DNA from: an uncultured archaeon
GTDB lineage: Archaea > Asgardarchaeota > Jordiarchaeia > Jordiarchaeales > Jordiarchaeaceae
NCBI GenBank assembly: GCA_964510585.1
Contig: CAZECW010000076.1
Location: 1-32,000 of the forward strand
Direction: 5' to 3'
Length of the DNA: 32,000 nucleotides
Part shown: positions 9,403 through 30,570 of the stretch, piece by piece
Position numbering within the stretch: the stretch's first letter is position 1
Layout of the letters: each line of letters begins with the position of its first letter
Program-made: the position numbers and the translations under genes
Notes under the pieces: model-generated
The model's database searches: none
The model's input: only the letters and a program-made list of their open reading frames with translations
Told to the model about the DNA's origin: nothing

Positions 9403-9412
9403 AGGTTTGAAT

Positions 9413-12484: not shown

Positions 12485-12494
12485 AAAATGAAGG

Positions 12495-13073: not shown

Positions 13074-13271
13074 ATGAGCAAAAAAATAGATTTGAGTGAA
13101 GAGGAACAAGTACTTGTAAAGGAAATTATGGAAGAATTGGGCTTGAAAGGTGGTAAAGACAAGCGACTCGTATCAACTATTGGCAAAAAACATAATTTTG
13201 ATAAGCAAAGAATGATTGTTGCAATTAAACGTGCAATCATCGGGAGAACCGACGAAACACCTAATTCTTAA
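13074..13271 (+). CDS. Small hypothetical protein (65 aa, probably helical)
   Basis: ATG start, natural-looking charged sequence, ends about 20 nt before the Sec-hdrA start with that gene's SD in the gap. Confidence 0.65.
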   Translation: MSKKIDLSEEEQVLVKEIMEELGLKGGKDKRLVSTIGKKHNFDKQRMIVAIKRAIIGRTDETPNS

Positions 13272-13291
13272 ATTGGAGGTGATTAATGCGA

Positions 13292-15253
13292 ATGAGTAAT
13301 AATGAGAAAACTGCATCGGAACCAGCCATCGGCGTCTACGTTTGCGAGTGAGGCGTTAACATAGGTGGCGTCGTTAACTGCAAAGAAGTAGCAGAATTCG
13401 CGAGTAAACTTCCTAACGTAAAAACATCAAAAACTTATTCGTTCTTCTGCTCAGACCCAGGACAAAAAATAATAAAAGAGGACATAGAAAAACTTGGAAT
13501 AAACAGGGTGGTCGTAGCTTCCTGTACTCCTAAAACACATGAACCCACCTACAGAACATTGTTGCAAAGCGCAGGAATAAGTCCCTACTACTTCCAAATG
13601 GTTAATCTGCGAGAACATTGCTCTTGGGTACATTATAAGAATCCTAAAGAAGCCACAGAAAAAGCAAAACATTTAGTGGCGGCGGGAGTAGCTAGAGCTC
13701 GACTCTTAGAGGATGTACCTCAGAGAACCGTAAAAGTGGAACCCGCGGTTATGGTAGTCGGAGCAGGAATCGCGGGAATAAGCGCAGCAATCACGGTCGC
13801 TAATCATGGACTTAAGGTCTACCTTGTAGAGAAAAAGCCCACCATTGGTGGATTGATGGCCCAGCTTGATAGGACATTTGCTACTGACGATTGTGCAATC
13901 TGAATATTGGCTCCAAAAATGGTTGAAGCTGCTAAACACCCAAACATTAAATTGCTGACCTACACAGAAGTAAAGGAGTTGAAGGGGAGCCCTGGCGAAT
14001 TCATAGTGACTCTACTAAAAAAACCAAGATATGTGAATGAAAGCAAGTGTACGGGATGTGGTGCATGTTCCGAAAAGTGTCCCGTAGAGGTTCCCGACGA
14101 GTTCAACAATGGACTTGGAACAAGGAAAGCCATATACATACCGTTCTCTCAAGCGGTGCCTAAGATTGCTTTAATATCTATGGAGGATTGTATTCAATGC
14201 AAGTCTTGTGAACGCCAATGCTTAGCTGGAGCGATTGACTATGATCAGAAACCAGAAGAATTCGAGGTTAAAGTCGGCGCGATTATAGTAGCAACAGGTG
14301 CGGATATCTATGATGCGGCTGAACGGAAAGATTATGGTTATGGAATATACGAAAATGTTATCACACAAATGGAACTGGAGCGAATGTTAAGTCCTACTGG
14401 CCCCACATTTGGGCATATTTACAGGATTTCAGACAGAAAGGTACCAAAGCGAATCGCAATGATCCAGTGTGTTGGCTCGAGAGACATAAAAACTAATCCT
14501 TACTGCTCCGAGGTCTGTTGCATGGTAGCAATGAAGAATGCAAAACTAATAAAACAGCACGATCCGAACACCGAAGTAACCATATACTATATGGATATGA
14601 GAACTGTAGATGAAGGACACGAAGAGTACTATATGGGAGCCAGAGGACACGGAGTGAAATTCGTAAGAGGCAATGTGGCCAGAGTCAAAGAAGACCCCAA
14701 AACCAAAAATCTACTGCTCAGGGTTGAGGACACATTAACAGGAGAAATAAAAAGAGAAGAAGTTGATTTGCTGGTTCTTTCAACTGCAGTAATACCATCA
14801 AAATCGGGAACAGAACTCGGTGCGATTCTGGGCATTGATATGTCAGCAAGTGGCTTCCTCAGACCAGTGCACTCAGGACTTAGCCCACAAGAAACAAAAA
14901 CACGTGGAATTTATATTTGTGGCATAGCACAGGGACCAAAGGATATATCCTACGCAGTTTCTTCAGCTAAGGCTGCGGCGTCAGCTGCTACAGCTTGGTG
15001 TCTTGCGGGAGAAGCGACGCTAGAGTTAATAACTCCAATTGTTGAAGAGAAACTTTGCATTGGCTGCAGGAGATGCGAAAGAAACTGTCCATTCGGAGCC
15101 ATTAAAGTGATTGAGGGTGTAGCGAAAGTAGACGAAGCAAGTTGCAAAGGTTGCGGAATCTGTGTCGCTTCATGTCCAGCACATGCTCTGGATCTCAGAT
15201 ATTACCGCGACAAACAGATAAGGGAAGAGACGGCAGCGCTAGTTGAAACTTAA
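13292..15253 (+). CDS. hdrA: Selenocysteine-containing HdrA (653 aa; Sec20 and Sec204)
   Basis: One continuous frame from ATG 13292 (GGAGGTGA SD at 13275-13282) to TAA 15253, with in-frame TGA at 13349-13351 (GVYVCE-U-GVNIGG) and 13901-13903 (TDDCAI-U-ILAPKM). Both align with TGT-encoded Cys in the neighbouring hdrA (10808, 9599). A SECIS-like hairpin follows the stop. Confidence 0.92.
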
Positions 15254-15259
15254 TCCATA

Positions 15260-15316
15260 TGCTTAATGATTCCATCAGCGAAAGCCTTGACTGGTGGATG
15301 AAGGCTCTGGTAAGCA
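15260..15316 (+). promoter_or_regulatory. SECIS element (eukaryote/Asgard type) for Sec-hdrA
   Basis: ATGA(15266-69)-T-TCCATCAG / loop CGAAAGCCTTGA / CTGGTGGA-T-GA(15300-01); lower stem TGCTTA/TAAGCA; begins 12 nt after the stop. Confidence 0.8.
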
Positions 15317-15369
15317 ACCAGTAGGATTAAAAAATATAATTAAAAAAGGTGTGTGTTGGAGGAAATAGG

Positions 15370-15777
15370 TTGACATATCAAGTTGTTGTATATGCGTGTT
15401 GGAAATGAGGTTATGGAGTAGCCGACCTCACAGGTGTTTCCAGGGTGGCTTATGACCCAGCCCTTAGAATCGTGCGTTTAAGGTGTACGGGACGCCTGGA
15501 TAGTTCGTTATTGCTGGAGCCGATTTGTAATGGTGCAGATGGCGTTATGGTGGTGGGATGACATATAGGTGAGTGCGACTTTGAAAAGGGAAACATTATG
15601 GCAGAGAAACATGTGAACTTTGTTAAAAGAATTCTTGAAAGACGTGGAATCGGAGGCGATCGGGTTAATATGTATCATTGTTCAGCGGCTGAGGTTGGTC
15701 GATTCAAGGAATCCGTTGAGGATATGATGGGCAAAATCAGAAAACTGGGACCTAATCCCTTAAGACAAGAAAAATAG
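15370..15777 (+). CDS. mvhD: Selenocysteine-containing MvhD/VhuD (135 aa; Sec13 and Sec64), absent from the ORF track
   Basis: TTG start 7 nt after GGAGG. Translation MTYQVVVYACWK-U-GYGVADLTGVSR...RLRCTGR...GADGVMVVG-U-HIGECDF...YHCSAAE...LGPNPLRQEK. TGA at 15406-08 and 15559-61 align with TGC Cys codons of the Cys paralogue (12564, 12717). Confidence 0.93.
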
Positions 15778-15781
15778 TTAC

Positions 15782-15862
15782 GGTTACTCCTCGGATGATC
15801 CTGAATCAATAAATCTCTGAAGATTCAGGAGACAATCCTCGTAAGCGGAGGGTTAAGTAACC
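15782..15862 (+). promoter_or_regulatory. SECIS element (eukaryote/Asgard type) for Sec-mvhD
   Basis: ATGA(15795-98)-TCCTGAATC / loop AATAAATCTCTGAA / GATTCAGGA-GA(15831-32); outer stems CTCC/GGAG and GGTTACT/AGTAACC. Confidence 0.82.
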
Positions 15863-15895
15863 TCTTGGCGGATATCCTGAATGGAGGTCACATAG

Positions 15896-17332
15896 TTGGC
15901 AAATAAACTAGATTTAGATGCTACGTTGGAAGCATTGAAGAGTTTTAGGGTTCGTGCCTTGTTCGGAGGAGAAAAAGAGATTGTCGAGTGTGGAAAAATA
16001 ACCCGTGAAGAATGGGAGAAACTCTTAGATTTCGTCGTGGACGATGAAACTGAGCGTAGAAAAGTTTTGTTAACTGTTAAGAGATTAGGCAGCGCATCCT
16101 TGTCTCGACTGGAACAAGAGTTAGAAATGTCTAATTTCAGTATTCAAAAACATCTTCGACTCCTGGAGTACGAAGGCTTAGTTGAGAGAAGCTCTGACAA
16201 TTTTTCAGAAGAAATTTATAAGCCTGTTTTAAAATCAGGGCCTTCGAGGCCTCCTTTTGAAAAAATCAAATTTATTGTAGATGAGAAGCTCTGCGTGGAC
16301 TGCGGAGCATGTGTAAGTTATTGCCCAACTAACGCAATAACTATTATTGATGAAGCCCCAGTAATTGATGAGGATAAGTGCATTGGGTGTGGCATCTGTA
16401 ATAGTGTAGCTTGCCCTAGAACCTTTCTCTATCTAGATCTTTTGAGATATTATGTAAAGGGTGAAACATGTAAACTTGATCAGGAACCAATAGCAGCATA
16501 TAAGAGCGCCTTTGCGGCGCAAACCATGAAGGAGGAAATAAGAAAAGTTTGCCAGGATGGAGGCATAGTAACATCAATATTGGCTTATCTTTTTGATCAC
16601 AACTTGATAGATGGAGCATTAGTGGTTAAAAAAAGAGGGGAAAACTGGGTCTCCGAACCGGTGGTGGTAACTAACAAGGAGGAACTACTTGAGACAGCAG
16701 GTACCAAGTATGTTGTTACTCCCACACTAGTAGGATTAGAAAAAGCCAAAAAGATGGGGCTTAAAAAAATTGCTGTGGTTGGAACTCCCTGCCAGATTCA
16801 GGCAGTCAGGAAGACGCAGGTCTTTTCAAGCGCCTTCCAAGAAATTATGGGGAGAATAGTTCTTGTAATAGGAATATTCTGCATGGAGAATTTTTCTTAC
16901 CAGAATATGAAGAAAATTGTTGAAGAATATTGCAAGGTGAATCTAGAAAACGCACGCAAAATGGATATTAGCAAGGGCCAATTCTCAGTACACTCCAAAA
17001 CCGGCGAAAAATCTTCAGTACCAGTTAAAGATATAACGGGTTTGGCGAGGCCAGCTTGCCATGTGTGTCCAGATCTCACCAATGAGCTTGCAGACATCTC
17101 AGTAGGCTCCATAGGATCACCGCCAGATTGGTCAACTGTACTTATTAGAACAGAGAAAGGTGGGGAAATTTTCCGAAAAGCCCAGGAGGAGGGGTACTTG
17201 ACTTCGAAACCGTTGGAAGAAAGTGAAACAGGACTCCCCCTACTTATAAAATTAGCGAGAGGGAAAAGAAAGAGAAACCTTGAAAAACTAGAATCCAAAA
17301 GAGCAGAAGGGAAATATGCTACCCATTTCTAG
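15896..17332 (+). CDS. FrhB/FdhB-family F420-binding flavoprotein with an N-terminal winged-helix-like domain and a 2x[4Fe-4S] ferredoxin
   Basis: SLSRLEQELEMSNFSIQKHLRLLEYEGLV (wHTH-like); CVDCGACVSYCP and CIGCGICNSVACP; QDGG, GTKY, VGTPCQ, GIFCMENF, CHVC.D...ELADISVGS.GSP; TTG start with GGAGGT SD. Confidence 0.85.
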   Translation: MANKLDLDATLEALKSFRVRALFGGEKEIVECGKITREEWEKLLDFVVDDETERRKVLLTVKRLGSASLSRLEQELEMSNFSIQKHLRLLEYEGLVERSSDNFSEEIYKPVLKSGPSRPPFEKIKFIVDEKLCVDCGACVSYCPTNAITIIDEAPVIDEDKCIGCGICNSVACPRTFLYLDLLRYYVKGETCKLDQEPIAAYKSAFAAQTMKEEIRKVCQDGGIVTSILAYLFDHNLIDGALVVKKRGENWVSEPVVVTNKEELLETAGTKYVVTPTLVGLEKAKKMGLKKIAVVGTPCQIQAVRKTQVFSSAFQEIMGRIVLVIGIFCMENFSYQNMKKIVEEYCKVNLENARKMDISKGQFSVHSKTGEKSSVPVKDITGLARPACHVCPDLTNELADISVGSIGSPPDWSTVLIRTEKGGEIFRKAQEEGYLTSKPLEESETGLPLLIKLARGKRKRNLEKLESKRAEGKYATHF

Positions 17333-17358: not shown

Positions 17359-18651
17359 TCATAGGGTCTGAATTGTTTCAAGCTCAAATTCGCAGTAATC
17401 GCTTCCCATAGCTATACACTTTGTTTCTCTGCAAGTCCATTCTTTATTTGTGATCTCTTGAAGAATGCCCGCAAGAGCACCCGCAACAAAGACACATACG
17501 GGCCTATCAGAATGCTTGTAGGATAGTGCAATTGTGGAAATTCCGGTTATTTTTAGTTTGCCTGTATCAACACTTCCCTCAACTGATAGTACTCTACCCC
17601 ACCCTGAGACAGTGTTGTATTTTAAAACTTCGTATACTGGATTTTTATTAGTTATCAGAGCTACAGGTTTTATTAGAAGAGTTGCCCCACGTCCCACTTT
17701 TTTACCCAATTCGAAGAGAATTTTTTGGCACTCTTCATAGGTGTATTTTTCTTCCACACTTCTAATAAAGAGTATGAAGGTCTGTATTGGGGTTATCACG
17801 TGGTTCCAGCCGAGTATCGAAACCTGTCCCATTTCGTTGAACGACATACTTTCTTTTAATTTAGTGAAGGAGTCATAGAGTGGGAAAAGAGTGATAAATC
17901 TGTTTGGAGTAAAAAGATAAGCGAATCTCTGGTTCAAAATTTTGTGAGCTTCTCTTATTAGGGGAGTTCTTGAAATATGTACGTATGACTGCTTTTTTTC
18001 TTCAACTATTTCAAAACTAAAGTTTATGGCATAGTCAACGATATGAATCAAAGTATTAGTAACCTGTGGTTCATGAACATCGCGGTTTACTATTCCCAGA
18101 AATATTCCTCCCTCGCTCTTAGCGTCAAGAGTTAATTTTCTAATCATTCTCAAAACAGTTTTTGAATCAAAGTCGATAATAGAGGAACTTATATTGGCGT
18201 ATATAACAAGTATCGGCTCATCCGGAAATTTTTGTTTGATCCAGTTTTTTGCGTAGTTTATTTCGTAAATTATTCTGTTTGGTTCATTCGCTATCTCCCT
18301 AATGTTCCTAACTTCATCATAAACCAATCTGGTTTTGTTTTCGCTTGAAATTAAGTCCAAAAAGTAAAAGCGGCCTTCCTGGATAGCATTTTGAAATACT
18401 GTATTCATTTTCTCGGAGAAATTTTTCTTAATTTGTTTATTAATTATTTCGAAGGGCAAATTTGTGTGAACCGTTATAACAACTCCGCCTTTTTCCAAAA
18501 AATTTAAAGCTATTAGGGCCGCAAGTCTATTGGCGTCGTTAAGTGTGAAGGAGTCTGATATTACTAAGATTGACAAGCCATCATATAAGCGCCCCAATGT
18601 TTTATCAATATAGTCAATTTCAGTTTTGCGAATCTTCAAACTGTCTCCCAA
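17359..18651 (-). CDS. Degenerate RecA/KaiC-like domain plus V4R domain protein (paralogue 1)
   Basis: ID..LG.L..G...LVISDSFTLNDA; NISSSIIDF; GIVNRDVH; C-terminal SGWG...PVC...WTCRETKCIAMGSDYCEF. Confidence 0.75.
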   Translation of the reverse strand: MGDSLKIRKTEIDYIDKTLGRLYDGLSILVISDSFTLNDANRLAALIALNFLEKGGVVITVHTNLPFEIINKQIKKNFSEKMNTVFQNAIQEGRFYFLDLISSENKTRLVYDEVRNIREIANEPNRIIYEINYAKNWIKQKFPDEPILVIYANISSSIIDFDSKTVLRMIRKLTLDAKSEGGIFLGIVNRDVHEPQVTNTLIHIVDYAINFSFEIVEEKKQSYVHISRTPLIREAHKILNQRFAYLFTPNRFITLFPLYDSFTKLKESMSFNEMGQVSILGWNHVITPIQTFILFIRSVEEKYTYEECQKILFELGKKVGRGATLLIKPVALITNKNPVYEVLKYNTVSGWGRVLSVEGSVDTGKLKITGISTIALSYKHSDRPVCVFVAGALAGILQEITNKEWTCRETKCIAMGSDYCEFELETIQTL

Positions 18652-18728
18652 CCTTCAAATCTTCGATTATTAAATCCTGTATAGCTTTCCTTAGAAGCAT
18701 GAGGGAATATGTGCTCGATGCTAAATTT

Positions 18729-20003
18729 TTAAGGGGGCTGTTCAATTTTCGCCTCAAATACGCACCATTCATCCCCTGTGGCTATGCAGTTTGTCTCATC
18801 ACAAACCCACCTCTTTCCTGTAACTCCCTCTAAAATGCCAGCCAAAATGCTTCCAACCAAGACGCAGACTTTGTGGTTGGATTTTCCATAATAGTGGGAT
18901 AACGTCATAAAGTTGTAAATTTTAAATTTTCCAGATTCTGGGCTCCCCTCTCTCTTGATTAGTCTTCCCCAACCCCGAATTAGGAAGTAATTAAGTGTTT
19001 CTCTTAGCAAGTCACTTCCTTCTAAACCATACTTTGATTTGAAAAGATTTGTTATCTCCAAACCCAATTTTCTACCAAAATTTTCCATAAATTTTTCATA
19101 CTCGTTTATGCCCAAAGTCTTTTCAAGTTCTTTAAACAAAAACAAGAATGTACTTAAAGGAGTAATCAAAAATTCCCTATCACGGAGTAAAATTTTCCCA
19201 TCCTCATAGGAAATATTTCTCTTAAAATCGTCAAAGACTGGAGCCATAGCGGGAAGCTTCATAAAATTATTTTTGGAAAAAATGTAAGCATACTTCTGTT
19301 GAATATTTGCTGAGATTGGCTCCAAAACCGGAGATTTTAATACACGAACATATGGCTGTTTTAAGCCTCCCTCCTCCTCAGTTCTGAGTTCTACCACAAA
19401 ATCGGCCAAATGTATAAGCGTATTTAGTATCAGAGGATCGTGAATGTCGCGATTAACTAGTCCCGTGACAATGTCCCCCCAACGCTTTACGTTTGCAGTT
19501 AACCTTCTAAACAATTTTAACACAGTTTCTGAGCCAAAATCAATAATAGACGAACTTAAATTTAGGTACAAAATCATAACTGGTAAGTCTGGTAAAAAAT
19601 TTTTGACTTTTTCCCTTAAATAATTGACTTCAAACATTATCCTGGCTGGATCACTGTAAATTCTGACTATTCCCTTTAAGCCACTTGAACCTTCATAAAA
19701 AGCCTTATCTTGCGTCATATCCAGATAATAACATCTGCCTTCATTAAAGGCATTCCAAACAATATCAGTATCTTCTGATGAAAACCTTGCTTGAATGTCA
19801 TAATTTATCTTAGAGGCCGGCAAACTTGTTCCTACTACTATGCCGCCTCCCCCTTGCTTAATGAAGTTTAAGCCAACCATAAGGTTAAGATTTATGGCAT
19901 CATTTAAAGTGAAAGAATCACATACAAACAAAATTGAAATACCACCGGATAAAACTCCTAGGTACTCGTCTATGAATTCAACCAATGTTTTCTCAATCGT
20001 CAA
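18729..20003 (-). CDS. Degenerate RecA/KaiC-like domain plus V4R domain protein (paralogue 2)
   Basis: DSFTLNDA; NLSSSIIDF; GLVNRDIH; RGWG...KVC...WVCDETNCIATGDEWCVF. Confidence 0.75.
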   Translation of the reverse strand: MTIEKTLVEFIDEYLGVLSGGISILFVCDSFTLNDAINLNLMVGLNFIKQGGGGIVVGTSLPASKINYDIQARFSSEDTDIVWNAFNEGRCYYLDMTQDKAFYEGSSGLKGIVRIYSDPARIMFEVNYLREKVKNFLPDLPVMILYLNLSSSIIDFGSETVLKLFRRLTANVKRWGDIVTGLVNRDIHDPLILNTLIHLADFVVELRTEEEGGLKQPYVRVLKSPVLEPISANIQQKYAYIFSKNNFMKLPAMAPVFDDFKRNISYEDGKILLRDREFLITPLSTFLFLFKELEKTLGINEYEKFMENFGRKLGLEITNLFKSKYGLEGSDLLRETLNYFLIRGWGRLIKREGSPESGKFKIYNFMTLSHYYGKSNHKVCVLVGSILAGILEGVTGKRWVCDETNCIATGDEWCVFEAKIEQPP

Positions 20004-20054
20004 ACTTTATCCCTCATTATAACTTTTGTTTACCCTCTTGAATAATGGATGAGT

Positions 20055-21332
20055 TTAACCCACAAGTTTCAATTCGAACTTACACCTACTGTTTCCTTTG
20101 GCAGTACACTCTTGTTCATCACAAGTCCAGTTTCGTGAGGAGATTTCTTCTAGGACTCCCTGTAGAACGCCTCCTTGGATTATACAAACGGGATAATCGG
20201 ATTTTCCATAATTGGCGGCAAAGTTGGAAGAGCCTTCAACTATTATGTGTCCGGATTCAATGTCTCCTTTGGGTATGTTGAATTTGCCCCATCCTGTAAT
20301 CGAGAGGTGATTTACTGCGGCTTTAAAAATTTCTTCGTTAGTCAACCTCACTCGGGAAGACAGTGTTCGTACAATGTGTGACCCTATGAGCCTGCCCACA
20401 TTTTTTACTATTTTTGTGTATTCGTTTTTCCCCAGTTTTTTTTCAATTTCTTTTAGAAGAATTACGAAGGAGGGGATCTCAGAAATAATGTAATTCGTTT
20501 CGTAGGCTATTACTTCTCCTCTTTCAAGGTAAGAGATACTTGCCTTCAACTCTTCAAAGGACGTAGGAATAGTGGGTAGAGTGTAAAAGTTGTTGTCAAA
20601 CAAGTCATAAGTAAATTTTTTGTATAATCTTTTATTAGTATCCGTAGAAAGGGGGCTTCTGGCCACAGATACATAGGGTTGCTTTTTACCTTCAATAAAA
20701 TCTACTCCAAATTCAAGTATATAATCAGCCAAGTGAGTTAGGGAGTTAGCTATGCTCAGCTCCTGCATTTCCCGATTTAAAACCCCCAGGAACAAATCAC
20801 CATGCATCTTAACATTTAGTATCAATTTTCTTATCATGCTTAAAACGGCTCTCGGTTCAAAATCCATAATCAGTGAGCTAATGTTCGATTGCAAAATAAG
20901 AATGGGGGCATCGGAAGAACACTTAATATTATCCCTTGTGTTTAAAATTTCATATAGAATTCTGTTGAGGTCATTTACAATAATCTTAACACATTCTGAC
21001 TGGCTAAGGGCAAAGTTATCGATATTTTCCTCTGGTACAATGTTAAGATAGCGTAATCGACCCTCATTCATTGCATCTTGCAAAACACGTCCTTTTTCTG
21101 GAGAGCTGAAATAGATTTCATCTTTTGTTGCAGAAGAGAAGGGAGGGTTTTCATAGAGAAAAATGCACCCTCCACCATTTTTCAAAATGTTTAATGCCAC
21201 TGAATCTGCCAATCTTTGAGCATCATTTATGGTGTTTGAATCCGCTGAAATCAACATTGGTAAACCGCGGTAAAGAACGCCCAGAGAGTGATCCAGAAAC
21301 TCTATTCCAATGTTTTTAATTTTCAAGTCCAC
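20055..21332 (-). CDS. Degenerate RecA/KaiC-like domain plus V4R domain protein (paralogue 3)
   Basis: DSNTINDA; NISSLIMDF; GVLNREMQ; TGWG...PVC...WTCDEQECTAKGNSRCKF. Confidence 0.75.
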   Translation of the reverse strand: MDLKIKNIGIEFLDHSLGVLYRGLPMLISADSNTINDAQRLADSVALNILKNGGGCIFLYENPPFSSATKDEIYFSSPEKGRVLQDAMNEGRLRYLNIVPEENIDNFALSQSECVKIIVNDLNRILYEILNTRDNIKCSSDAPILILQSNISSLIMDFEPRAVLSMIRKLILNVKMHGDLFLGVLNREMQELSIANSLTHLADYILEFGVDFIEGKKQPYVSVARSPLSTDTNKRLYKKFTYDLFDNNFYTLPTIPTSFEELKASISYLERGEVIAYETNYIISEIPSFVILLKEIEKKLGKNEYTKIVKNVGRLIGSHIVRTLSSRVRLTNEEIFKAAVNHLSITGWGKFNIPKGDIESGHIIVEGSSNFAANYGKSDYPVCIIQGGVLQGVLEEISSRNWTCDEQECTAKGNSRCKFELKLVG

Positions 21333-21386
21333 AACCCCTTAAAGACCAAAAATTGAATAATTTATAAAAATTGATTATTTCATGAA

Positions 21387-22670
21387 TCATATTTGGGTCA
21401 ATTCAAATTCACAATAATCGTCACCCATAGCAATGCACCTTACCTCTTTACTAACCCACTTTTTTCCTGTAATTTCTTGAACCGCACCTAGTAAACCGCC
21501 CTCGATTAATATATCCACGGGCTTGTTTGATTTGCCCCACAATTGGGCTAAAGAGGAGTGAACTCTAATTTTTAAACCACCAGATTCAAGACTTCCCTCA
21601 ATGTTTAACACTCTACCGTAACCCCTAGCACCGACATACATAAGAGTTGAATGTAAAAGTCGATCCCCTTTTAAATTAAACTCTGATTCAATAATCCTAA
21701 CATTCTTAGCTCCGAAATTTTTAGCAAGCTCCATAATAATTTTTCTATAAGTATCATAATCCAGACTTTTCTCAAAACATAATAGAAGACTCACAAGGAA
21801 TTGTGTGGGAAGCACAAGATGCCTAGTCCCCAATATTGAAATTTCACCTCTTTGATAAAAAACCTGACCGTCTTCCAATTCGTCCAGATAAAAAGATACT
21901 GGTGAAAAGGTTTCAAACTTGTTTCCCGAAATGTAGTACGCAATTTTTTTGTGCAGAAGCTTCTTAACAAACCCAACCATGGACGTTTTAGATACTTGCA
22001 GATAAGGACGGGGTTGATCTTCTCTAAGCTCCAATCCAAACTCCATAGTGTAGTTTGAAAAATGTTTCAGAGTATTTGTTATTTCCAGCTCATGAATGTC
22101 TCTGTTTACTACACCAATGAGAATATCCCCATTCTGCTTTATGTTTGTTATAAATTTTTTAAACATGTTTAAAACGGCCTTCGAATCGAAATCAACCATA
22201 GTAGAGCTAATATTATGATACAAGAGAATAACTGGACTACCGGGAAACATAGCTCTCATCTTTTCCATCGCACGATTAGCTTCATACAGTATTCTATCTA
22301 TGTCATTTCTAACCAGCACCACACCAACCAAGCCCTCAAAGTTTTCCCCAGAAGGAACTCTGCCAGACACAAGATCTAAATATGTGAAACGGCCCTCATC
22401 CATAGCCTTTATTAAAGCATGATACTTATCAGGCAGAAACATATGCTTAAATTTTCTCGCGGCCAAAAAGTGTGGCTCATCCGTTTGAATAGCAACACAA
22501 GGCAATCCCTGATCTATTAGATTAAAAGCAGCTAACATGCTGAGAAGCAAAGCATCATTCAATGTAGCAGAATCAGCTATGAAGAGTAATACTTGACCTC
22601 CAGAAACGCCTCCCAAAGAAAAGTCTACAATTGGAATCCTAGTTTCAAACTCCAAAACCCAATCCCTCAA
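21387..22670 (-). CDS. Degenerate RecA/KaiC-like domain plus V4R domain protein (paralogue 4)
   Basis: DSATLNDA; NISSTMVDF; GVVNRDIH; RGYG...PVD...WVSKEVRCIAMGDDYCEF. Confidence 0.75.
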   Translation of the reverse strand: MRDWVLEFETRIPIVDFSLGGVSGGQVLLFIADSATLNDALLLSMLAAFNLIDQGLPCVAIQTDEPHFLAARKFKHMFLPDKYHALIKAMDEGRFTYLDLVSGRVPSGENFEGLVGVVLVRNDIDRILYEANRAMEKMRAMFPGSPVILLYHNISSTMVDFDSKAVLNMFKKFITNIKQNGDILIGVVNRDIHELEITNTLKHFSNYTMEFGLELREDQPRPYLQVSKTSMVGFVKKLLHKKIAYYISGNKFETFSPVSFYLDELEDGQVFYQRGEISILGTRHLVLPTQFLVSLLLCFEKSLDYDTYRKIIMELAKNFGAKNVRIIESEFNLKGDRLLHSTLMYVGARGYGRVLNIEGSLESGGLKIRVHSSLAQLWGKSNKPVDILIEGGLLGAVQEITGKKWVSKEVRCIAMGDDYCEFELTQI

Positions 22671-22850: not shown

Positions 22851-24011
22851 TTAATTTGTAGCAGATTTTATTTTGATTCTTTTGTTTATAATGTTCCCTT
22901 CGTTATCTTCATAGGACATTTGGAAACTTTGAACGTTCTTTTCACGCAACTCGTAGTTGAGTTCTACTTCTTTTCCCGCAGGTAACCTTTTTACACCCAG
23001 CATATAAGGCGCCGTTTCGAATAGCTCCTCCTTTATGCCAACCACTTTTATTGTAACGCCGTTAAGCTCTTGTCTCGTATTGTTTGTCACATGCAGGAGT
23101 AATTTCTCTTTTTCTTTTCGCTCCACCGAAACCTCTATTGATTGTGGTAACAGTTTCCCTTTCAATATATTCTGAGCTTTTGGCTCTTCGAACAATCCCA
23201 CTTCCTCAATTGGGGGTAATACAATATTTATTGGTATCTGGAACTTAATACTTTCACCAGTAACCTTTACACATGTAATATCAAGATACCAGTAAGAGTA
23301 AGCTCCAAATGTCTGAGACCACTGAGTTCTTTCTGTAGGCTCCCAGAAATAGTTATAGCTGTGCTCAGCGTGCTGCGGTACCCTGATAGATAAGTAGCCC
23401 TGTGTAGGATTCTTTTCCTCAACAGTAGTCAAAATTTCCGGAGGACTCTTTTTAATGTGGACGCAAACCTTTGCATATTTAGGGCAGGAACAACTAATGT
23501 TCGAGTCATTAACTAAATTTACGGATAATAGTTTTAATCCCTCAGTTTTATAATTCAGTTTAATTACCTCACCGGGCTCAACAGCATCCTTTTCGATGCT
23601 AAAGCTCATCCCCTTAATGGTAAGAGAAACAGGATTAGGCTCAAATCTCTGTTCCGACCTTATTTTGATAGGTTTCTCTGAGACAATCTTAAAAGCTTCG
23701 CCGTACCTATCTAGTTTCCCCACAGAAAGAGAGGCCCTTATAAGGTAATGAATATTTTTTCGTATAAGGGTAGGAACCACTCTTCTACTCACAGGTAGTT
23801 CACGTTCTCTCACATAAATCCCGTTTTCAAGAAAGCCCTCACAGAATATCTCACTTGTAGACAGGGGAAGTTCATTTCCACAAGGCAAGTTAGTGAGGAG
23901 AGTAACCCCACCCCACCAAACCTTTGTATCCTCAGCTAGATCAAACTTAGTTACGGTTCTTACGGATGAACCGGCCGTTGCCGTATCCTTTGCGCGTAAC
24001 TCTATTGACAT
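22851..24011 (-). CDS. Arrestin/Vps26-fold-like protein with a SWIM-like CxC-x6-CxH motif and a C-terminal shared domain
   Basis: G.Y...ELPV...VVPT....IHYLIRASL (arrestin-N-like); SIEKDAVEPGEVI.L and IRVP...S...YL.I...IKFQIPINI (arrestin-C-like); SCSCPKYAKVCVH; tail aa 304-386 resembles the tails of the FrhB and uDENN-like proteins. Confidence 0.6.
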   Translation of the reverse strand: MSIELRAKDTATAGSSVRTVTKFDLAEDTKVWWGGVTLLTNLPCGNELPLSTSEIFCEGFLENGIYVRERELPVSRRVVPTLIRKNIHYLIRASLSVGKLDRYGEAFKIVSEKPIKIRSEQRFEPNPVSLTIKGMSFSIEKDAVEPGEVIKLNYKTEGLKLLSVNLVNDSNISCSCPKYAKVCVHIKKSPPEILTTVEEKNPTQGYLSIRVPQHAEHSYNYFWEPTERTQWSQTFGAYSYWYLDITCVKVTGESIKFQIPINIVLPPIEEVGLFEEPKAQNILKGKLLPQSIEVSVERKEKEKLLLHVTNNTRQELNGVTIKVVGIKEELFETAPYMLGVKRLPAGKEVELNYELREKNVQSFQMSYEDNEGNIINKRIKIKSATN

Positions 24012-24051
24012 CAGTAACTACCCTAAAGAGTGAATTATTTGTTTCCTTATA

Positions 24052-24966
24052 CTAGCCTTCAGCATGGGCTCTAACCACAAGATCAGCAAACATAGACATA
24101 TCGGAAAGCAGTGTATCAATCTTCTCCTTCGCTTTTTCATCCAATTCTTGAGTTTTCATTATCAATACTGCTATTATAAATTTGAATACGTGTAAAGAAA
24201 TCTCTTTACCTCCATCCAGTCCCCGCCCAGTGAATTCTGCGGATTCAGACATAAAGAAGTTCTCTCTCAAATTATTACATGCACTTATGAAATCTCTCAG
24301 GTCCCCTCTTAATTGTAATCCTGTGCTAACTCCCTGAACATTGTGTACAATCACATTACCCGAAGTATCACTAATAATAATTCTGGCTGGAATTTCACTC
24401 AACTGTTTCTGGGCAGTTTCAACATGCTTCTCCAAAGACTTGTAACTCGCAACCAATATGTCCCGAAATATTTCAGCGAGTCTCTCCTGTTCATAAATTG
24501 AAGTCACATGAAAAGTAGGATTCCACCTAGAAAACAAATCTAGGAAGATACTCTTAGCCTTTTCCAGATTCGTGTCAAGAAGCTCCTTCACATAATCCTT
24601 CAGATCATACTTGTGGAAGAAAATGTGCACCGCAGGCTTAATATTATTCTTTGTGAACAAATCAATAATCTGTTTAAAGTACTCCTTCGCAGCCTCGAAA
24701 CTCTCAGGCTCATGAAGATCCACAACTGGAATCAAAACATCCGTACCCTGAAACACCTTTGGATCACTAATATAAGACTCTCGGTACTGCTCCTGACCAC
24801 CAAAGTCAAATATTGAAACCTCCAAGCCTAAGAAGGGATGCCTTCTAATCTCATACATAATAGTTGGAGCCGCACCCACAGTCTGTTCAGGCTTCTTGCC
24901 AGCAAACGTAGTCAAATATATACTAGTTTTCCCACATCCTGAAAGTCCAACCAAAGAGATTTTCAA
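24052..24966 (-). CDS. Small GTPase, Rag/Gtr1-like, with a C-terminal roadblock/longin-like domain
   Basis: G1 GLSGCGKT, G2 PT, G3 DFGGQ, G4 HKYD, G5 TSIY; C-terminal RIIISDTSGNVIV... of about 110 aa; TTG start with GGAGG SD. Confidence 0.85.
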   Translation of the reverse strand: MKISLVGLSGCGKTSIYLTTFAGKKPEQTVGAAPTIMYEIRRHPFLGLEVSIFDFGGQEQYRESYISDPKVFQGTDVLIPVVDLHEPESFEAAKEYFKQIIDLFTKNNIKPAVHIFFHKYDLKDYVKELLDTNLEKAKSIFLDLFSRWNPTFHVTSIYEQERLAEIFRDILVASYKSLEKHVETAQKQLSEIPARIIISDTSGNVIVHNVQGVSTGLQLRGDLRDFISACNNLRENFFMSESAEFTGRGLDGGKEISLHVFKFIIAVLIMKTQELDEKAKEKIDTLLSDMSMFADLVVRAHAEG

Positions 24967-25017
24967 CGTTCTCTAACCTCCGCAAACACAAAGAATCAAA
25001 TAACTATTTAACATTTA

Positions 25018-26535
25018 TTATTCCGTTTTCCTACCCTCACTCGCCTTTTTACCCTCAATATCCTTCACACTAAGCTTCTGAGACAGAATAGTCCCCTGCC
25101 TATCAGAAATAGTCAACAAGTACTCCCTATCATCCTTAACCCTAGGATAACAGAATTCAAGCTCCTCAAAAGGATACCACGCCTCAATCTCAGTCTCCCA
25201 AGCATTGCTCTCAAATAAATCCTCCAAGTGAGCAATCCTAACCTTAATATCACTTATTGTTTTCCCCGAATTATTCGATAAAGTTATCTGAAGCATAGTG
25301 TCTCCATTAACAAAACGTGCATCCGAAACTTTAAGCAACTTTTGAAGAGCACGCTCAGTTATCCCTGCCTTCGCTTCTGCCTTCTCCTCAACCAAAGGTA
25401 TTGCTCCCCGCCGTTCTACAGGTTCAGGGATTCCAGCTGCTGTCGGAATATACTTTAAAACGTAGGTTTGACGCCTCCTCTCAGTGTACATTTGCACCTT
25501 CTTTAACCTTGCTAGATTTAAAACCTTCTGCAAACCATCCCGATCTAGGGGCTGTAAAGTTAAATAACCATTCTCCATCGCATCCTCAAGAAGTTCATTA
25601 GCCACACCAGTACGCACCAGTATAGTCGAATACCCGTCAGGAGATCCAACACTCCCTACAGATATGTCAGCTAACTCCGAGGTTAAATCCCTACAATAAT
25701 GACAGCTTGTTGAACGATACTTGTCAAGATCCTTCACCGGCCAAGCAGCAGTCTTATCGCCATTGTAGATTATGTTGAATTTGCCAGCCGATATACTCAT
25801 TTTACTAATGGAACTCAGAGGTATTCCTTGCTTTATTTCAAAGAACTCCTTTAAGCCATCATGATAAAAAGAGTCCATACAGAATAGGCCTATTTTAAAT
25901 ATTTTCACCTTCATAAGTAAGTGGAGCAAACCGAAGGGCTGCTGCTGCATTTTGGTCACTGCGTCTATATTGCAGGGAGTGCCCACAAAGGCTATGGAGC
26001 GATACCCTTTATTAATCGCTTCAACCAAAGCCTCAACAGTTCTGCTGTGAGAGTAAACACTACCAGAAGATTTTAGAAGATCCTCAGAACTTGAGACTAT
26101 TCTTGCAACAGGCTTCCAAGGCTCCCTCTCATCCTTTTGAGTAACTATTGCAGCATCTATCAAACCATGATCCATAGCATACAATAGGAGAGAAGTTACA
26201 ACCCCACCATCCTGACCCTTAACTTTGTCTATCGCAGATTTGCCTATAAAAGCCGCAATGTAATCTCCAATCAAGGACTTTACAGAAGTTATAGTTCTGG
26301 GACAAGCACGGTAACATATTCCACAAGCAGTACATTTCCCAACCAACTTGGGAACCTCATCTTCCATCACAAGAGCCTTCTCAGGACAAACCGAGACACA
26401 GGTGCAACACGCTGTGCAAACGCCGCTCCTAATCACTTCCTGATTTAGGCGTCCAAAGTTTTCAAGCTTTTTCACTTTTAAGAGTCTTTCAGGAAAAGTA
26501 TAACTTACGTACCCTTTTTCCTCCTCGTTTAACAT
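25018..26535 (-). CDS. FrhB-family F420-binding flavoprotein with a C-terminal shared beta-rich domain
   Basis: CTACCTCVSVCP, CTACGICYRACP, QDGG, VGTPCN, GLFCMDSF, CHYC.D...ELADISVGSVGSP; extra C-terminal domain at aa 415-493. Confidence 0.85.
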   Translation of the reverse strand: MLNEEEKGYVSYTFPERLLKVKKLENFGRLNQEVIRSGVCTACCTCVSVCPEKALVMEDEVPKLVGKCTACGICYRACPRTITSVKSLIGDYIAAFIGKSAIDKVKGQDGGVVTSLLLYAMDHGLIDAAIVTQKDEREPWKPVARIVSSSEDLLKSSGSVYSHSRTVEALVEAINKGYRSIAFVGTPCNIDAVTKMQQQPFGLLHLLMKVKIFKIGLFCMDSFYHDGLKEFFEIKQGIPLSSISKMSISAGKFNIIYNGDKTAAWPVKDLDKYRSTSCHYCRDLTSELADISVGSVGSPDGYSTILVRTGVANELLEDAMENGYLTLQPLDRDGLQKVLNLARLKKVQMYTERRRQTYVLKYIPTAAGIPEPVERRGAIPLVEEKAEAKAGITERALQKLLKVSDARFVNGDTMLQITLSNNSGKTISDIKVRIAHLEDLFESNAWETEIEAWYPFEELEFCYPRVKDDREYLLTISDRQGTILSQKLSVKDIEGKKASEGRKTE

Positions 26536-26625
26536 TTATCTGTCTCCTTTCGTTTTTCGTTTCTCCGGTTTCTGAACGTAGATCGGGTCTTCAAACAATA
26601 TAGGGTTATAGAGGTATCTTTCCAA
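26536..26625 (-). CDS. Putative 29-aa leader protein (MERYLYNPILFEDPIYVQKPEKRKTKGDR), not in the ORF track
   Basis: TTG at 26625 five nt after GGAG; its TAA directly abuts the frhB-like ATG (TAAATG); lies downstream of a TTTATATA box. Confidence 0.45.
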   Translation of the reverse strand: MERYLYNPILFEDPIYVQKPEKRKTKGDR

Positions 26626-26666
26626 TTTTGCTCCAAAGTTATAGTTGGAATTATATTCTTGTCAAG

Positions 26667-26680
26667 TATATAAATTTTTT
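26667..26680 (-). promoter_or_regulatory. Candidate TATA box/BRE for the leader ORF-frhB-GTPase-arrestin unit
   Basis: AAAAAA-TTTATATA on the - strand, about 42 nt upstream of the leader TTG. Confidence 0.45.
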
Positions 26681-26817: not shown

Positions 26818-28860
26818 CTACATTTTTGGAGAGGATTCGGGCGGTTTTTCTTCTTTGGAAGGCCAAGCAAAAATAATTACAGTTAGACAGATGAGGAAGG
26901 GCATAAAGAGTAGGAAAATCTGCAGGTACTGGGAATTCTCGGAGGGAATAATTCCTACTATTAGGACTGTGGGATTTAACTCAGAACTTTGAACATAGAT
27001 CTTTTGGGCGTCAGAAATGGTCTGATAGCCTTGAGAATCTACTGCTCGAGCGTAGAATACCAAGCTGTGATTGTCGAAATTAGAAGAGTCTATGGTAAAG
27101 CTGTGACTGTGGCTTAGCATTGGTGTTGAATTGACGACTACCTTATTGTAGTCTGTAACCACTATTTCTAGGCTAATTATTCCTTGGGGGTCTGTGCAGG
27201 AGATGTTGATTGTGAATTGTTCTCCGGGGTTGATGCTTGTGGGGGCGTTGATGTTGAAAATGGTAGGTTGGTCTGGTGTGAAGCCTACTTCTAGAGTTGT
27301 GGTGTTGTAGAGATGATTGGGTTTGGTTACTGTGATGTTGTACTGTCCGGTTGGGGGTGCGGGGATTTTTATTCGGCCTTGGGAGTCGGTGAGGTAGGTG
27401 TGATAATATTCTGTCCCCTGTATGCAGACTAGGGTGTTGCTCACGGGGCGTCCTTCGCTGTCCTGGATTCTAATCTGCATCATTTGGCCTGGTGTAGGTG
27501 TGTATTCGGGTAGAATGATGTTTAGGCTTTGTGGGATACTGGTCCATATGGGGAGTTCTGGATCTCCTAGTAGGATGTATTCAAAGAATTCCTGTCTGTA
27601 TATGCTGTTTTCAGCCATCCTAAATAGACCCACCTTCTGGTAGTACTCCTGTTTGCTTTCGTATAGGGCGTATCCTGCGCGTTGGGAAAACAGGCCATCA
27701 TTGGTATGGAGGAGTATTTCGAAGAACAATGCGTCTAAGAGAGAATCTGATAAATCATTAATGCTGTCTCCGCCATAGCTTTTTCTAGTAGCTCCAATAT
27801 AAGATATTGCTCCATTATTTGGATTCTTTAACATGGCTTCACCTATACAGTCTCCCACATAGTCTAGACCTGCTGTTAAACAAGCTGAGGCAAAAACTAG
27901 AGGCAGCCTATAACCATTATTTGAACTTGCAGCAGCATCAGAGGTATAATAAGTGCCACCGACGTCAGATGAGACCGAGTCGGTGGAACCGTGGGAGCAT
28001 AGGTTGACTATTGTGCATCCATTATTTATTGCGTTGGTAAAATTGTTTAAAGTTAAATTGTTATAATTGCGTATGGAGTCGTAGAATAGATTTATAAAGT
28101 TCATGCTTAGTTCTTTGGGGAGAATGTGGTCTCGGATGTAGTTTTTGATCCGCCATCCCTGAATGTCATTGCTTTGGCTTAGTTGGCCTCCTGCGAATAC
28201 TGCTGTTTGCATCCATTCTCCAATATGGTTGGCTATTTCTTTTTCGTAGGTGAGTGTTTTGTTTATCATGTTTTCGAGTTCGGTTAGATTTGAGGCGGGC
28301 AGCCTTCCGACGTATAGTTCTGGAATCCAGTCTATTTCGCTGAATTCGCCGTATAACTCATTTTCGTTATCGTCAAATGTTCCATTCAAAGCGGCGTAGT
28401 AATAGTCGCTTGGTACATTGTCCAGTCCAGTCCAAAAGTATCTTATGGGGATTATGCTGGTGTTGCCTGCCAGTAGGACCCAGCGGATGTTCCATTGGTT
28501 GTACGCGTCTGTCAGAAAGTTGCGTATTTTTGATGAACTGTCTTTTCCGGGGTAGTTTTCGTAGATGTAGGTTGTGTTGAATATGGCTGTGGGTATTCCT
28601 TTTTGTGTTTTCCATTCTGCAAATTGTGTCAGATTGGTGTTATTTGCCCATTCTGGGGGGGTTATTATTATGTATTGTGTGGTGTTTGTTTTCAGAATTA
28701 GTGGCGTGGGGATGTCTTTTATTTGTAGGGCTTGTTGGTTCTGTGAAATAACTGCAGGTATCCAGGTGTTGGGGGTGGGGAGGAGTAGGAGTGAAGCTCC
28801 CAAAGTTATCAGAAGTATTAGGAATCCCAGTTTTATGAGTGAAGTTCTCAAGTTGACCAC
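26818..28860 (-). CDS. Membrane-anchored gingipain-like cysteine peptidase (family C25)
   Basis: YIIITP, F..WK..KG, VLLAG, SD.YY, VGRLP, catalytic SHG and SAC, GA..YIGATR, LLGDP; N-terminal signal/TM, C-terminal Ig-like repeats and TM. Confidence 0.88.
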   Translation of the reverse strand: MVNLRTSLIKLGFLILLITLGASLLLLPTPNTWIPAVISQNQQALQIKDIPTPLILKTNTTQYIIITPPEWANNTNLTQFAEWKTQKGIPTAIFNTTYIYENYPGKDSSSKIRNFLTDAYNQWNIRWVLLAGNTSIIPIRYFWTGLDNVPSDYYYAALNGTFDDNENELYGEFSEIDWIPELYVGRLPASNLTELENMINKTLTYEKEIANHIGEWMQTAVFAGGQLSQSNDIQGWRIKNYIRDHILPKELSMNFINLFYDSIRNYNNLTLNNFTNAINNGCTIVNLCSHGSTDSVSSDVGGTYYTSDAAASSNNGYRLPLVFASACLTAGLDYVGDCIGEAMLKNPNNGAISYIGATRKSYGGDSINDLSDSLLDALFFEILLHTNDGLFSQRAGYALYESKQEYYQKVGLFRMAENSIYRQEFFEYILLGDPELPIWTSIPQSLNIILPEYTPTPGQMMQIRIQDSEGRPVSNTLVCIQGTEYYHTYLTDSQGRIKIPAPPTGQYNITVTKPNHLYNTTTLEVGFTPDQPTIFNINAPTSINPGEQFTINISCTDPQGIISLEIVVTDYNKVVVNSTPMLSHSHSFTIDSSNFDNHSLVFYARAVDSQGYQTISDAQKIYVQSSELNPTVLIVGIIPSENSQYLQIFLLFMPFLICLTVIIFAWPSKEEKPPESSPKM

Positions 28861-28951: not shown

Positions 28952-29998
28952 TTATTGTATTTCTTTTATTGAGATTCTTTTTACTAGTAGTTTGTTGGTT
29001 CGGTCTTCTATTTTTAGTATATATTCGCCGTCGTTGTCGACTCGGGGGTACTGGAATACTAGTTCTTCGTAGGGGAACCAGAGTTCCACAGTTGTGTCCC
29101 AGGAATAGGTTTCAAAAAATTCTTCGATGTGGGCAATGGATATTTTTATGTTTTCTAATCCTTTTTCAGAGTTGTTCTTGACTGTTATTTTTAGTTTTTT
29201 CTTGTTGTCGGTGAATTCTACGCCCACCAGTTCTATGGGGCTTTCGGGAATGTGTTCGATAGCTCTGGTTTCTATGGCGCTTTTTCCGGATAGCGGGACA
29301 GATCTGGTTTGTGGGCCGCTTAAACCGTAAATGTTGCTGAGAAGGAAGTATATTAGGTTTCTCTGTTTCTCCACATCGCTCTGTAGGGCCTCCATTAACT
29401 CTGATGATATTATTGGTAGGGATATTTCACATATGTTCAGGAGATTATTTTCGATTTCCTCCCCTTCCTTAATAATTTTGTTATCTTCTTGTGTTCTTAT
29501 AGGTTTGCAACAAGCCAAATCCTTCTCTATTAAGATGTAAAGCTTGTCCTGCAAGCTCTCTCTGATTTTCTGAAGTATAACGCTGAGCAACTTATCTCCT
29601 AAAGGTTTAGCTAAACCCACAGGTACACTAACTATTAGAACAAAAACCTCCTCCGTCTCAGGAAACATACCCGCCCTTTGTTTTTCCCTAGCCGACTTCG
29701 CCTTAAATTTCGTGGCGGCATAAACTTTTCCCCCGAACTCTAAATCTACGCGGTTCAGTCCCTCTTTGAAATCGTCTGCTCCCAGCCACCAGACAGGGTG
29801 CTTCTGAATAATTCTCAGCGTTTCTAAATCATTCTTAAGACTCTCTGGGCAGGTAAATAGGGCAAGATGTCCTTTGGTTTCGTGAAAGTAGCACAGGTAA
29901 ATACCAATCAAGCCCTCTAAAATATTTGGGTGCCGCTCTTCCTTCTTTTGTTGAAATTCTAAACCATTAATTACATTATCATTCGAATTTTTGGACAT
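28952..29998 (-). CDS. uDENN/longin-like N-terminal domain plus the C-terminal shared domain
   Basis: GIYLCYFHETKGHLALFTCP resembles the uDENN/longin start (hydrophobic strand-F-x-x-x-x-G-x-x-x-x-x-x-x-P); aa 269-347 are 39/79 identical, without gaps, to aa 415-493 of the FrhB-family protein. Confidence 0.55.
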   Translation of the reverse strand: MSKNSNDNVINGLEFQQKKEERHPNILEGLIGIYLCYFHETKGHLALFTCPESLKNDLETLRIIQKHPVWWLGADDFKEGLNRVDLEFGGKVYAATKFKAKSAREKQRAGMFPETEEVFVLIVSVPVGLAKPLGDKLLSVILQKIRESLQDKLYILIEKDLACCKPIRTQEDNKIIKEGEEIENNLLNICEISLPIISSELMEALQSDVEKQRNLIYFLLSNIYGLSGPQTRSVPLSGKSAIETRAIEHIPESPIELVGVEFTDNKKKLKITVKNNSEKGLENIKISIAHIEEFFETYSWDTTVELWFPYEELVFQYPRVDNDGEYILKIEDRTNKLLVKRISIKEIQ

Positions 29999-30105: not shown

Positions 30106-30570
30106 TTAAACTCTTTTTTCAGCTGTATCCTTAGGTTGTAACTGGATTTCGTAATACCGTGTGTATTTTTTGAATTGGTTGACCCACTTTTTACTGATGA
30201 CGCCTACAATCTGCCCCTGCTTATTAACGACCCCGACCCGCTTCACTTTGGTTTTGTCAAAAAGGGTTTTTAACTCGTCCATAGAAACGTCCTCGCTCAC
30301 CGTTATAATGTCCCTAACCATAACGTCTCCTGCTTTATAGATTCGGGGATCCTTCTCCTTAGCCACCAAACGGAATATGACTCCATCCGTGATTATTCCA
30401 ACAACCTTGTCGTTGTCGTCTTTTACGAATACTGAGCTTATCCAGTTATCCACCATTAGTTTTGCCACTTTGGGTAGGGAGTCGTCGACATGGCAAGTTA
30501 TCACGTCACGGCTAGCCGCATTGACTATTGAGAATTTCTCCCTATTTTCAGTTGACAATCTTTCCACCAA
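30106..30570 (-). CDS. Tandem CBS-domain protein
   Basis: VITC..DDSL..VAKLM....ISSVFV.D...VVGIITD and VM.RDIITV...S........VKRV.VV...G.IVGVIS. Confidence 0.88.
   Translation of the reverse strand: MVERLSTENREKFSIVNAASRDVITCHVDDSLPKVAKLMVDNWISSVFVKDDNDKVVGIITDGVIFRLVAKEKDPRIYKAGDVMVRDIITVSEDVSMDELKTLFDKTKVKRVGVVNKQGQIVGVISKKWVNQFKKYTRYYEIQLQPKDTAEKRV

Follow-up and report, generated by a model that had tools for sequence, protein, structure and literature searches.

A 32,000-nucleotide (nt) stretch of contig CAZECW010000076.1 from an uncultured archaeon of the Asgard family Jordiarchaeaceae, hereafter the window, whose coordinates number all features below, carries on its minus strand three co-oriented genes. 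They encode an FrhB-type flavoprotein (P0001, FrhB-X), a Rag-like GTPase (P0002) and an arrestin-fold protein (P0003, arrestin-X). Read as open reading frames (ORFs), they are separated by gaps of 51 and 40 nt. In the direction of transcription, this strand has a CBS gene, a gene for a longin protein (P0005, longin-X), a C25-type peptidase gene and a 282-nt spacer, and then P0001, P0002 and P0003. P0001, P0003 and P0005 end in homologous stretches of ~100 residues, which define a domain that we call X. Because the linkage of FrhB-X with the Rag-like gene is conserved among Asgard genomes, and because this rare domain is common to the partners, a functional tie of the flavoprotein, GTPase, arrestin-fold and longin proteins is well supported.

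The preliminary description of this locus, made from the sequence alone, would have lost its footing had the gene linkage been unique to one genome. Instead, conservation of the FrhB-X/Rag pair extends to five or six Asgard families, with two different orientations. In a sample of 251 Asgard genomes (cut-offs E ≤ 1e-60 for the Rag orthologue and E ≤ 1e-90 for FrhB-X), the Rag orthologue occurs in the families labelled f1, f2, f9, f18, f21 and f28, and FrhB-X in these six plus f13; about 20 other families of the sample have neither. Across 80 named loci from Jordarchaeia, Lokiarchaeia/Promethearchaeia and Helarchaeota, FrhB-X lies directly upstream of the Rag orthologue on the same strand in 66 of 68 (the count requires at least 1.7 kb upstream), and arrestin-X lies 3′ of the Rag gene, co-oriented and no more than 6 kb away, in 45 of 74. 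Two Helarchaeota contigs (L095, L097) hold the whole set as a contiguous CBS-longinX-FrhBX-Rag-ArrX array. Elsewhere the order is rearranged: f21 has longinX-longinX-CBS-FrhBX with the Rag gene convergent, and one f18 genome (G033) has longinX-HdrA-MvhD-FrhB′-FrhBX with Rag-ArrX convergent. That adjacency survives inversion in f18 and f21 argues for selection on proximity rather than for an inherited operon structure. Longin-X is syntenic with the module in f1, f2, f18, f21 and Helarchaeota, and the CBS gene adjoins longin-X or FrhB-X in f1, f2, f21 and Helarchaeota. A natural fusion of longin-X to four CBS domains (P0069, 641 aa, a cluster representative) supports a functional tie of these last two genes.

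The X domain is the second line of evidence. A profile built from 25 sequences finds X exactly three times in this genome of 3.8 Mb, with all copies inside 7 kb, and only 122 clusters among 1.84 billion protein cluster representatives. By length, these clusters sort into FrhB-X, longin-X and arrestin-X, with some fragments besides, and within any one genome the X copies are no more than 7-15 kb apart. When X by itself was the query of a word-based homologue search, only close relatives of FrhB-X came back. In AlphaFold2 models X is a seven-strand immunoglobulin (Ig)-like beta-sandwich, and its conservation is highest in an (E/D)(E/D)-h-F-E loop (residues 438-442 of P0001, 328-332 of P0003 and 292-296 of P0005). 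The central hF of this loop is retained in all X domains from Rag-containing genomes and lost in all three f13 FrhB-X proteins (L017, L018 and L107; for example GEAPKDTVGW). X has no significant Pfam family (weak matches are GAE_BBS1 at 0.003 in 2 of 25 sequences, Transglut_C and CBM49), and its profile gives only insignificant hits among Protein Data Bank (PDB) sequences, to beta-arrestin-2 (E 0.13) and COMMD10. Homology to RhoGDI/UNC119 (Foldseek ~2e-4, template-modelling (TM) score ~0.4) and to the GH2 sandwich (Z ~10) was considered and set aside as generic Ig-like similarity. X appears to be a previously undescribed domain family with a candidate interaction motif.

FrhB-X opens with a ferredoxin domain for two [4Fe-4S] clusters (residues 35-85), continues with the FrhB_N/FrhB_C core (residues 98-335; PF04422, E 8e-22, and PF04432, E 2e-43) and, after a linker, ends in X (residues ~395-500, DNA 25036-25353). 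With both core domains, the [4Fe-4S] ligands and the flavin-site motifs in place, it is a member of the FrhB/FdhB family. Among solved structures it is closest to the F420H2-oxidising N-terminal half of Fsr, the F420-dependent sulfite reductase (7np8_A, E 6e-62), with FrhB (3zfs_C, E 1.5e-48) second. The retained Fe-S and flavin adenine dinucleotide (FAD)/F420 motifs remarked on in the preliminary description extend well beyond this genome: orthologues of five families share, without change, all 12 Fe-S cysteines (C40/43/46/50, C68/71/74/78 and C188/219/278/281) as well as the motifs QDGG and DISVGS. The genome also encodes CofD, CofH and CofE of the F420 biosynthesis pathway, each above curated cut-offs, which makes F420 a plausible cofactor and ligand of FrhB-X. 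In f13, the neighbours of FrhB-X include a GFO/IDH/MocA oxidoreductase and a TrmB regulator.

The GTPase comprises a G domain (residues 1-182) and a C-terminal domain of ~120 residues (183-304), and matches Pfam Gtr1_RagA above cut-off (PF04670, E 4.8e-20). The motifs GLSGCGKTS, T35, DFGGQ, HKYD and TSIY are conserved in 11 orthologues. Against PDB sequences, the orthologue profile places an Asgard 'GTP-binding protein' first (8yl2_A, E 7e-28), and ranks Gtr1 and RagA (1e-20 to 1e-21) above RagC (1e-12) and Arf (1e-9). By these motifs, G1 to G5 with the catalytic Gln and the Rag-specific HKxD, P0002 is a RagA/Gtr1-type GTPase. Alignments to 8yl2_A and Gtr1 extend only to residues 206-214, and the language-model features of the tail resemble Gtr1_RagA C-terminal fragments (0.83-0.86), a resemblance that serves as a lead only; the conserved ~120-residue tail is presumably a Rag roadblock-type dimerisation domain. 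The module holds no second Rag-like gene, and the other Rag-like matches of the genome are distant (E 8e-15 or weaker) and lie elsewhere. Four genomes of genus g26 (G046, G128, G146 and G179) carry, at a separate locus, a second Rag-like gene ~50% identical to P0002 (for example G146:C1:148710-149606), which may encode a partner for a heterodimer or belong to a paralogous system.

Arrestin-X has no Pfam match of any kind, including to arrestin and Vps26. The arrestin fold ascribed to it at the outset is nevertheless confirmed by its AlphaFold2 model (mean predicted local distance difference test (pLDDT) 83, predicted TM score 0.75), for which Foldseek ranks Vps26C, Vps26A/B and ARRDCs at the top and also matches TXNIP and Rgp1, with E values of 1e-9 to 1e-10 over the two lobes (residues 2-270); X follows at residues ~290-383 (DNA 22863-23144). 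We file the protein as a fold of the arrestin/Vps26/Spo0M clan only and not as Vps26, the retromer subunit that partners Vps35 and Vps29. Four cysteines (C44, C174, C176 and C183; PC...CxCx6C) are invariant, lie partly in a low-confidence loop of the model and may form a Zn or Fe-S site. There are precedents for arrestin folds that work with a small GTPase, in Rgp1 of the Ric1-Rgp1 guanine nucleotide exchange factor (GEF) for Rab6, and with a redox partner, in TXNIP and thioredoxin. In longin-X (AlphaFold2 model, pLDDT 82), a longin domain (residues ~29-150) is followed by a helical extension to ~224 and by X (residues ~250-348). Structural comparison of residues 29-200 with VIA-align gives VAMP7 longin (Z 10.2), FLCN (6nzd_H, Z 10.2; 138 residues aligned, root-mean-square deviation 3.2), a GATOR1 chain (8fw5_B, Z 10.0), a Lokiarchaeal longin (8yqg_B, Z 9.6) and DENND1A (Z 9.4), values that are moderate against a background whose best Z is typically 7-8. 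As modelled, the N-terminal part is a longin fold. A tripartite DENN architecture was rejected, since the protein lacks a core-DENN domain and consists only of the longin, the helical segment (154-224), a disordered linker and X.

Table 1. Features of the module and its surroundings in the window.
Feature	Position	Strand	Remark
CBS-pair gene (154 aa)	30106-30570	-	Pfam CBS, E 1e-20
Longin-X gene P0005 (348 aa)	28952-29998	-	Outside the coordinates of the three-gene unit as first claimed
C25-type peptidase gene (680 aa, secreted)	26818-28860	-	Between longin-X and FrhB-X
BRE/TATA-like block AAAAAATTTATATAC (putative promoter)	26666-26680	-	~130 nt upstream of the FrhB-X start codon
Former 'leader ORF' (29 codons, TTG start)	26536-26625	-	Best read as 5′ untranslated region
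FrhB-X gene P0001 (505 aa)	25018-26535	-	ATG start; first gene of the three-gene unit
Rag-like GTPase gene P0002 (304 aa)	24052-24966	-	TTG start
Arrestin-X gene P0003 (386 aa)	22851-24011	-	Last gene of the three-gene unit
Four ~425-aa V4R-domain paralogues, tandem	17359-22670	-	V4R domain C-terminal; 3′ of arrestin-X
FrhB paralogue (FrhB2)	15896-17332	+	End of the Hdr/MvhD cluster

The co-orientation and gene spacing reported in the preliminary description are exact, but its leader ORF does not stand as a gene. It was compared with the five closest relatives, in which FrhB-X is 81-93% identical to that of the window; the ORF is missing from four (L027, L029, L030 and L031), and the fifth (L028) has a shorter ORF in a different frame. 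Since it is found in the window alone and the alignment of the region contains indels that are not multiples of three, we read the stretch as the 5′ untranslated region of FrhB-X. The TATA box noted in the same description corresponds to a BRE/TATA-like block, AAAAAATTTATATAC, that is unchanged in the window and three genus-level relatives while its flanks vary, a pattern from which we infer a promoter. A GGAG ribosome-binding site lies immediately 5′ of the FrhB-X ATG and is conserved in relatives, and GGAGG stands 10 nt ahead of the TTG start of the GTPase. A scan for sigma-70 promoters and terminators says nothing useful about archaeal DNA. Each of the three genes is covered in part by contigs, ~89% identical to the window, that come from an RNA-Seq library, and the Rag/arrestin junction is spanned by one such contig; no contig of that run was observed to cross the FrhB-X/GTPase junction, an absence that carries no weight. 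These contigs give a weak hint of expression, as a two-gene contig is no proof of a single transcript and DNA in the library is possible. DNA of the locus also recurs in hot-spring metagenomes, and the names of its homologues assign the organism to the Asgard class Jordarchaeia ('Freyarchaeota').

Other genes around the module have a narrower distribution. A 180-nt spacer with T-tracts separates arrestin-X from the V4R paralogues, an array that is present in the same genus (G005) and absent from the syntenic loci of f2, f9, f18 and f21; as core members of the operon these paralogues were rejected, being a genus-restricted, lineage-specific addition. The Peptidase_C25 protein has hydrophobic segments at both termini, and only in f1 and f2 does its gene separate longin-X from FrhB-X; it is absent from this place in Helarchaeota and f21, so that we see it as an insertion into an ancestral CBS-longinX-FrhBX-Rag-ArrX array.

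On the plus strand, positions 6751-17332 encode HdrC/B/D, two HdrA-MvhD pairs and FrhB2, a second FrhB-family protein; this cluster ends 5.5 kb downstream of the three-gene unit. The statement that FrhB-X lacks a partner oxidoreductase is therefore right inside the unit, but the nearby Hdr/MvhD/FrhB2 cluster, syntenic in four families, qualifies it. Such HdrA/MvhD/FrhB clusters are not near FrhB-X in the f21 or f13 loci, with no Hdr genes within ~9 kb in f21. In the window (13292-15777, plus strand), copies of HdrA and MvhD are split by in-frame TGA codons in the list of ORFs and are taken to be selenocysteine (Sec) forms, and the same split HdrA pattern adjoins the module in f2 and f9 loci (L014, L015, L020, L025 and L026). 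In Lokiarchaeial loci of f9, a gene for a ~530-residue HEAT-repeat protein often stands immediately upstream of FrhB-X on the same strand (L019:10626-12239, L021:4014-5609, L025:11785-13410 and L026:11572-13152), between FrhB-X and a divergent Sec-containing HdrA/MvhD/FrhB cluster.

How might these proteins work together? The reading that we favour, at a probability of roughly 40%, is that a Rag-type switch assembles the longin regulator, the arrestin adaptor and the redox flavoprotein through X, with the CBS protein as a second input. The core module would then consist of the CBS protein, longin-X, FrhB-X, the RagA/Gtr1-like GTPase and the arrestin/Vps26-like protein with X. Here, X is a candidate docking domain whose exposed conserved loop would bring three proteins to a common partner, most likely the Rag-like GTPase, itself probably dimerising through its C-terminal domain. 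The longin domains of FLCN and NPRL2 set the nucleotide state of eukaryotic Rags, and longin-X may likewise set that of the GTPase, as a GTPase-activating protein or a GEF. The CBS protein would supply an adenine-nucleotide (energy) input and FrhB-X a redox input, the state of its FAD and Fe-S centres following either the F420H2/F420 pool or electron pressure from Hdr/MvhD, so that FrhB-X would be a still-functional redox module and not a dead enzyme fold. The arrestin-fold protein would be the output adaptor. The fully specified form of this proposal, a Rag hub that reads redox through the intact FrhB and energy charge through CBS, with sensor, regulator and adaptor all docked by X, we hold only tentatively and consider somewhat unlikely. 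A complex prediction that paired the Rag-like GTPase with X from FrhB-X scored 0.00; obtained without controls, this value speaks neither for nor against binding.

Several observations weigh against the Rag-switch proposal. FrhB-X retains a full electron wire (two [4Fe-4S] clusters, a further [4Fe-4S] cluster and the flavin site), and a pure sensor would not need one. Clusters of HdrA/MvhD/FrhB lie within a few kb of the unit in f1, f2, f9 and f18, and in G033 FrhB-X stands directly behind HdrA-MvhD-FrhB′ on the same strand. Most Lokiarchaeial loci have arrestin-X 1-5 kb off, with unrelated genes between, and longin-X ~13 kb away. In three f13 genomes, two of them closed, FrhB-X is the sole X protein and there is no Rag orthologue. 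Finally, X looks like E-set beta-sandwiches in general, and none of its matches is diagnostic.

Much of this would be expected if FrhB-X were instead a working F420H2-dependent electron-input/output module of an HdrA/MvhD bifurcating system and the cargo or effector of the GTPase module, with the CBS, longin, Rag and arrestin proteins recruiting, sequestering or releasing it via X according to energy state. We regard this as possible, with the odds leaning away from it, and as nearly the equal of the favoured reading. The cofactor ligands are intact in all FrhB-X orthologues, and the closest solved relative, the F420H2-oxidase half of Fsr, is a true electron-input module. The Hdr-type clusters adjoin the unit in the four families just named, and in G033 longin-X even lies ahead of the HdrA behind which FrhB-X is found. 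Survival of FrhB-X without the Rag module in f13 is what an enzyme with its own job would show. In eukaryotes arrestin/Vps26 proteins are cargo adaptors, as arrestin-X would be here. Against such a role stands f21, which keeps the longinX-CBS-FrhBX/Rag arrangement with no Hdr genes within ~9 kb, and the genome already has, in FrhB2, an FrhB paralogue closing its Hdr/MvhD cluster. The f13 pattern fits both an own job for FrhB-X and a loop that contacts the Rag module, and is suggestive only, since it comes from a single lineage. Sequence does not give the direction of information flow, so sensor and regulated enzyme cannot be told apart here. Of the idea put forward in the preliminary description, an F420-dependent enzyme fold repurposed as a sensor that controls the GTPase, the tie between flavoprotein and GTPase is thus well supported, but the sensor role is not demonstrated.

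It is unlikely that the neighbours are co-regulated without forming a complex, X being a generic oligomerising or stabilising sandwich shuffled among adjacent genes. That X has only generic Ig-like/E-set structural matches and no Pfam family would suit this view, as would the X-bearing FrhB-X that stands alone in f13 and the extensive domain shuffling for which Asgard eukaryotic signature proteins are known (bioRxiv 10.1101/2020.10.19.343400). However, X is confined to three protein classes across all the clusters searched and its copies stay within 7-15 kb of each other in a genome, the hFE loop disappears in precisely those genomes without the partners, adjacency survives inversions and a longin-X-CBS fusion exists. 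A chaperone role of the GTPase in maturing or assembling the Fe-S flavoprotein, on the model of HypB, UreG and MeaB, would account for a GTPase gene immediately 3′ of a metallo-flavoprotein gene in most genomes, but is very improbable: the companions (longin, arrestin fold and CBS) are signalling or trafficking folds, FrhB paralogues of the same genome have no such GTPase, and P0002 is of the TRAFAC-class RagA/Gtr1 type, with HKxD and a presumed Rag-type C-terminal domain, whereas known metallochaperone GTPases belong to the SIMIBI class.

To our knowledge, almost nothing is known of what the many Rag-, longin-, roadblock- and arrestin-like proteins of Asgard archaea sense or control. In its gene layout the module described here is an exception: across dozens of genomes the neighbours of one Rag-like GTPase stay the same, and a private domain marks three of them. 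These neighbours give concrete protein pairs for biochemistry, and two of them, the CBS protein and the F420-type flavoprotein, are candidate inputs that suggest a link to energy and redox metabolism. If the Rag-switch proposal is true, Rag signalling in Asgard archaea was already tied to energy and redox metabolism when TOR and lysosomes did not yet exist, and the coupling would inform our view of what Rag signalling originally did in the line of descent leading to eukaryotes. Asgard Rag-like GTPases, roadblock proteins and longin proteins have been described (Tran et al., 2024, Commun Biol, PMC10933270; Liu et al., 2020/2021, bioRxiv 10.1101/2020.10.19.343400); neither paper mentions F420 or arrestin. 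A literature search combining Asgard with FrhB/F420 and GTPase/Rag, and Asgard with arrestin and GTPase, did not find the combination described, nor was a description of the X domain found. Asgard Rag-like GTPases, longins and arrestin-like proteins are already known; the link to an FrhB-type flavoprotein and the X domain appear to be new.

Each part of the module has relatives among known systems. FrhB-X shares FrhB_N, FrhB_C and the cluster and flavin motifs with the FrhB/Fsr-N/FpoF family, and its N-terminal ferredoxin domain for two [4Fe-4S] clusters with the N-terminal half of Fsr. It differs from FrhB, Fsr and FpoF in that it lacks a catalytic partner, whether fused or co-transcribed (FrhA/G, siroheme or Fpo subunits), and in adding a C-terminal X domain and a genomic coupling to a GTPase. 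Arrestin-X has the two-lobe beta-sandwich of the arrestin clan (Vps26 of retromer/retriever, alpha-arrestins and Rgp1), with a target TM score of ~0.55, but only ~10-13% sequence identity to its members, as well as the extra X domain and the conserved four-Cys set. The closest parallel for the whole is the eukaryotic Rag/Gtr hub (RagA/C and Gtr1/2, with Ragulator/EGO, GATOR1/SEACIT and FLCN-FNIP). P0002 shares its DxxGQ, HKxD and TSI(W/Y) motifs and a C-terminal domain of ~120 residues, the module includes a longin protein whose nearest structures include FLCN and a GATOR1 subunit, and both would be switches for metabolic state. The Rag/Gtr family forms obligate heterodimers of A/B-type and C/D-type subunits, while the module has a single Rag-like gene with no adjacent RagC/Gtr2-type partner, and no Ragulator, TOR kinase or lysosome among its known parts. 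Its candidate inputs are instead a CBS protein and an F420-type Fe-S flavoprotein, and its partners share an X domain not known among eukaryotic Rag regulators. The published Asgard Rag-like and longin proteins are of the same class, as the matches of 8yl2_A to the GTPase and of 8yqg_B to the longin attest. For Asgard GTPases, genome layout rarely tells which regulator pairs with which (PMC10933270); here, in contrast to the Rag-like GTPases of Tran et al. and Liu et al., conserved neighbours nominate the partners of the GTPase.

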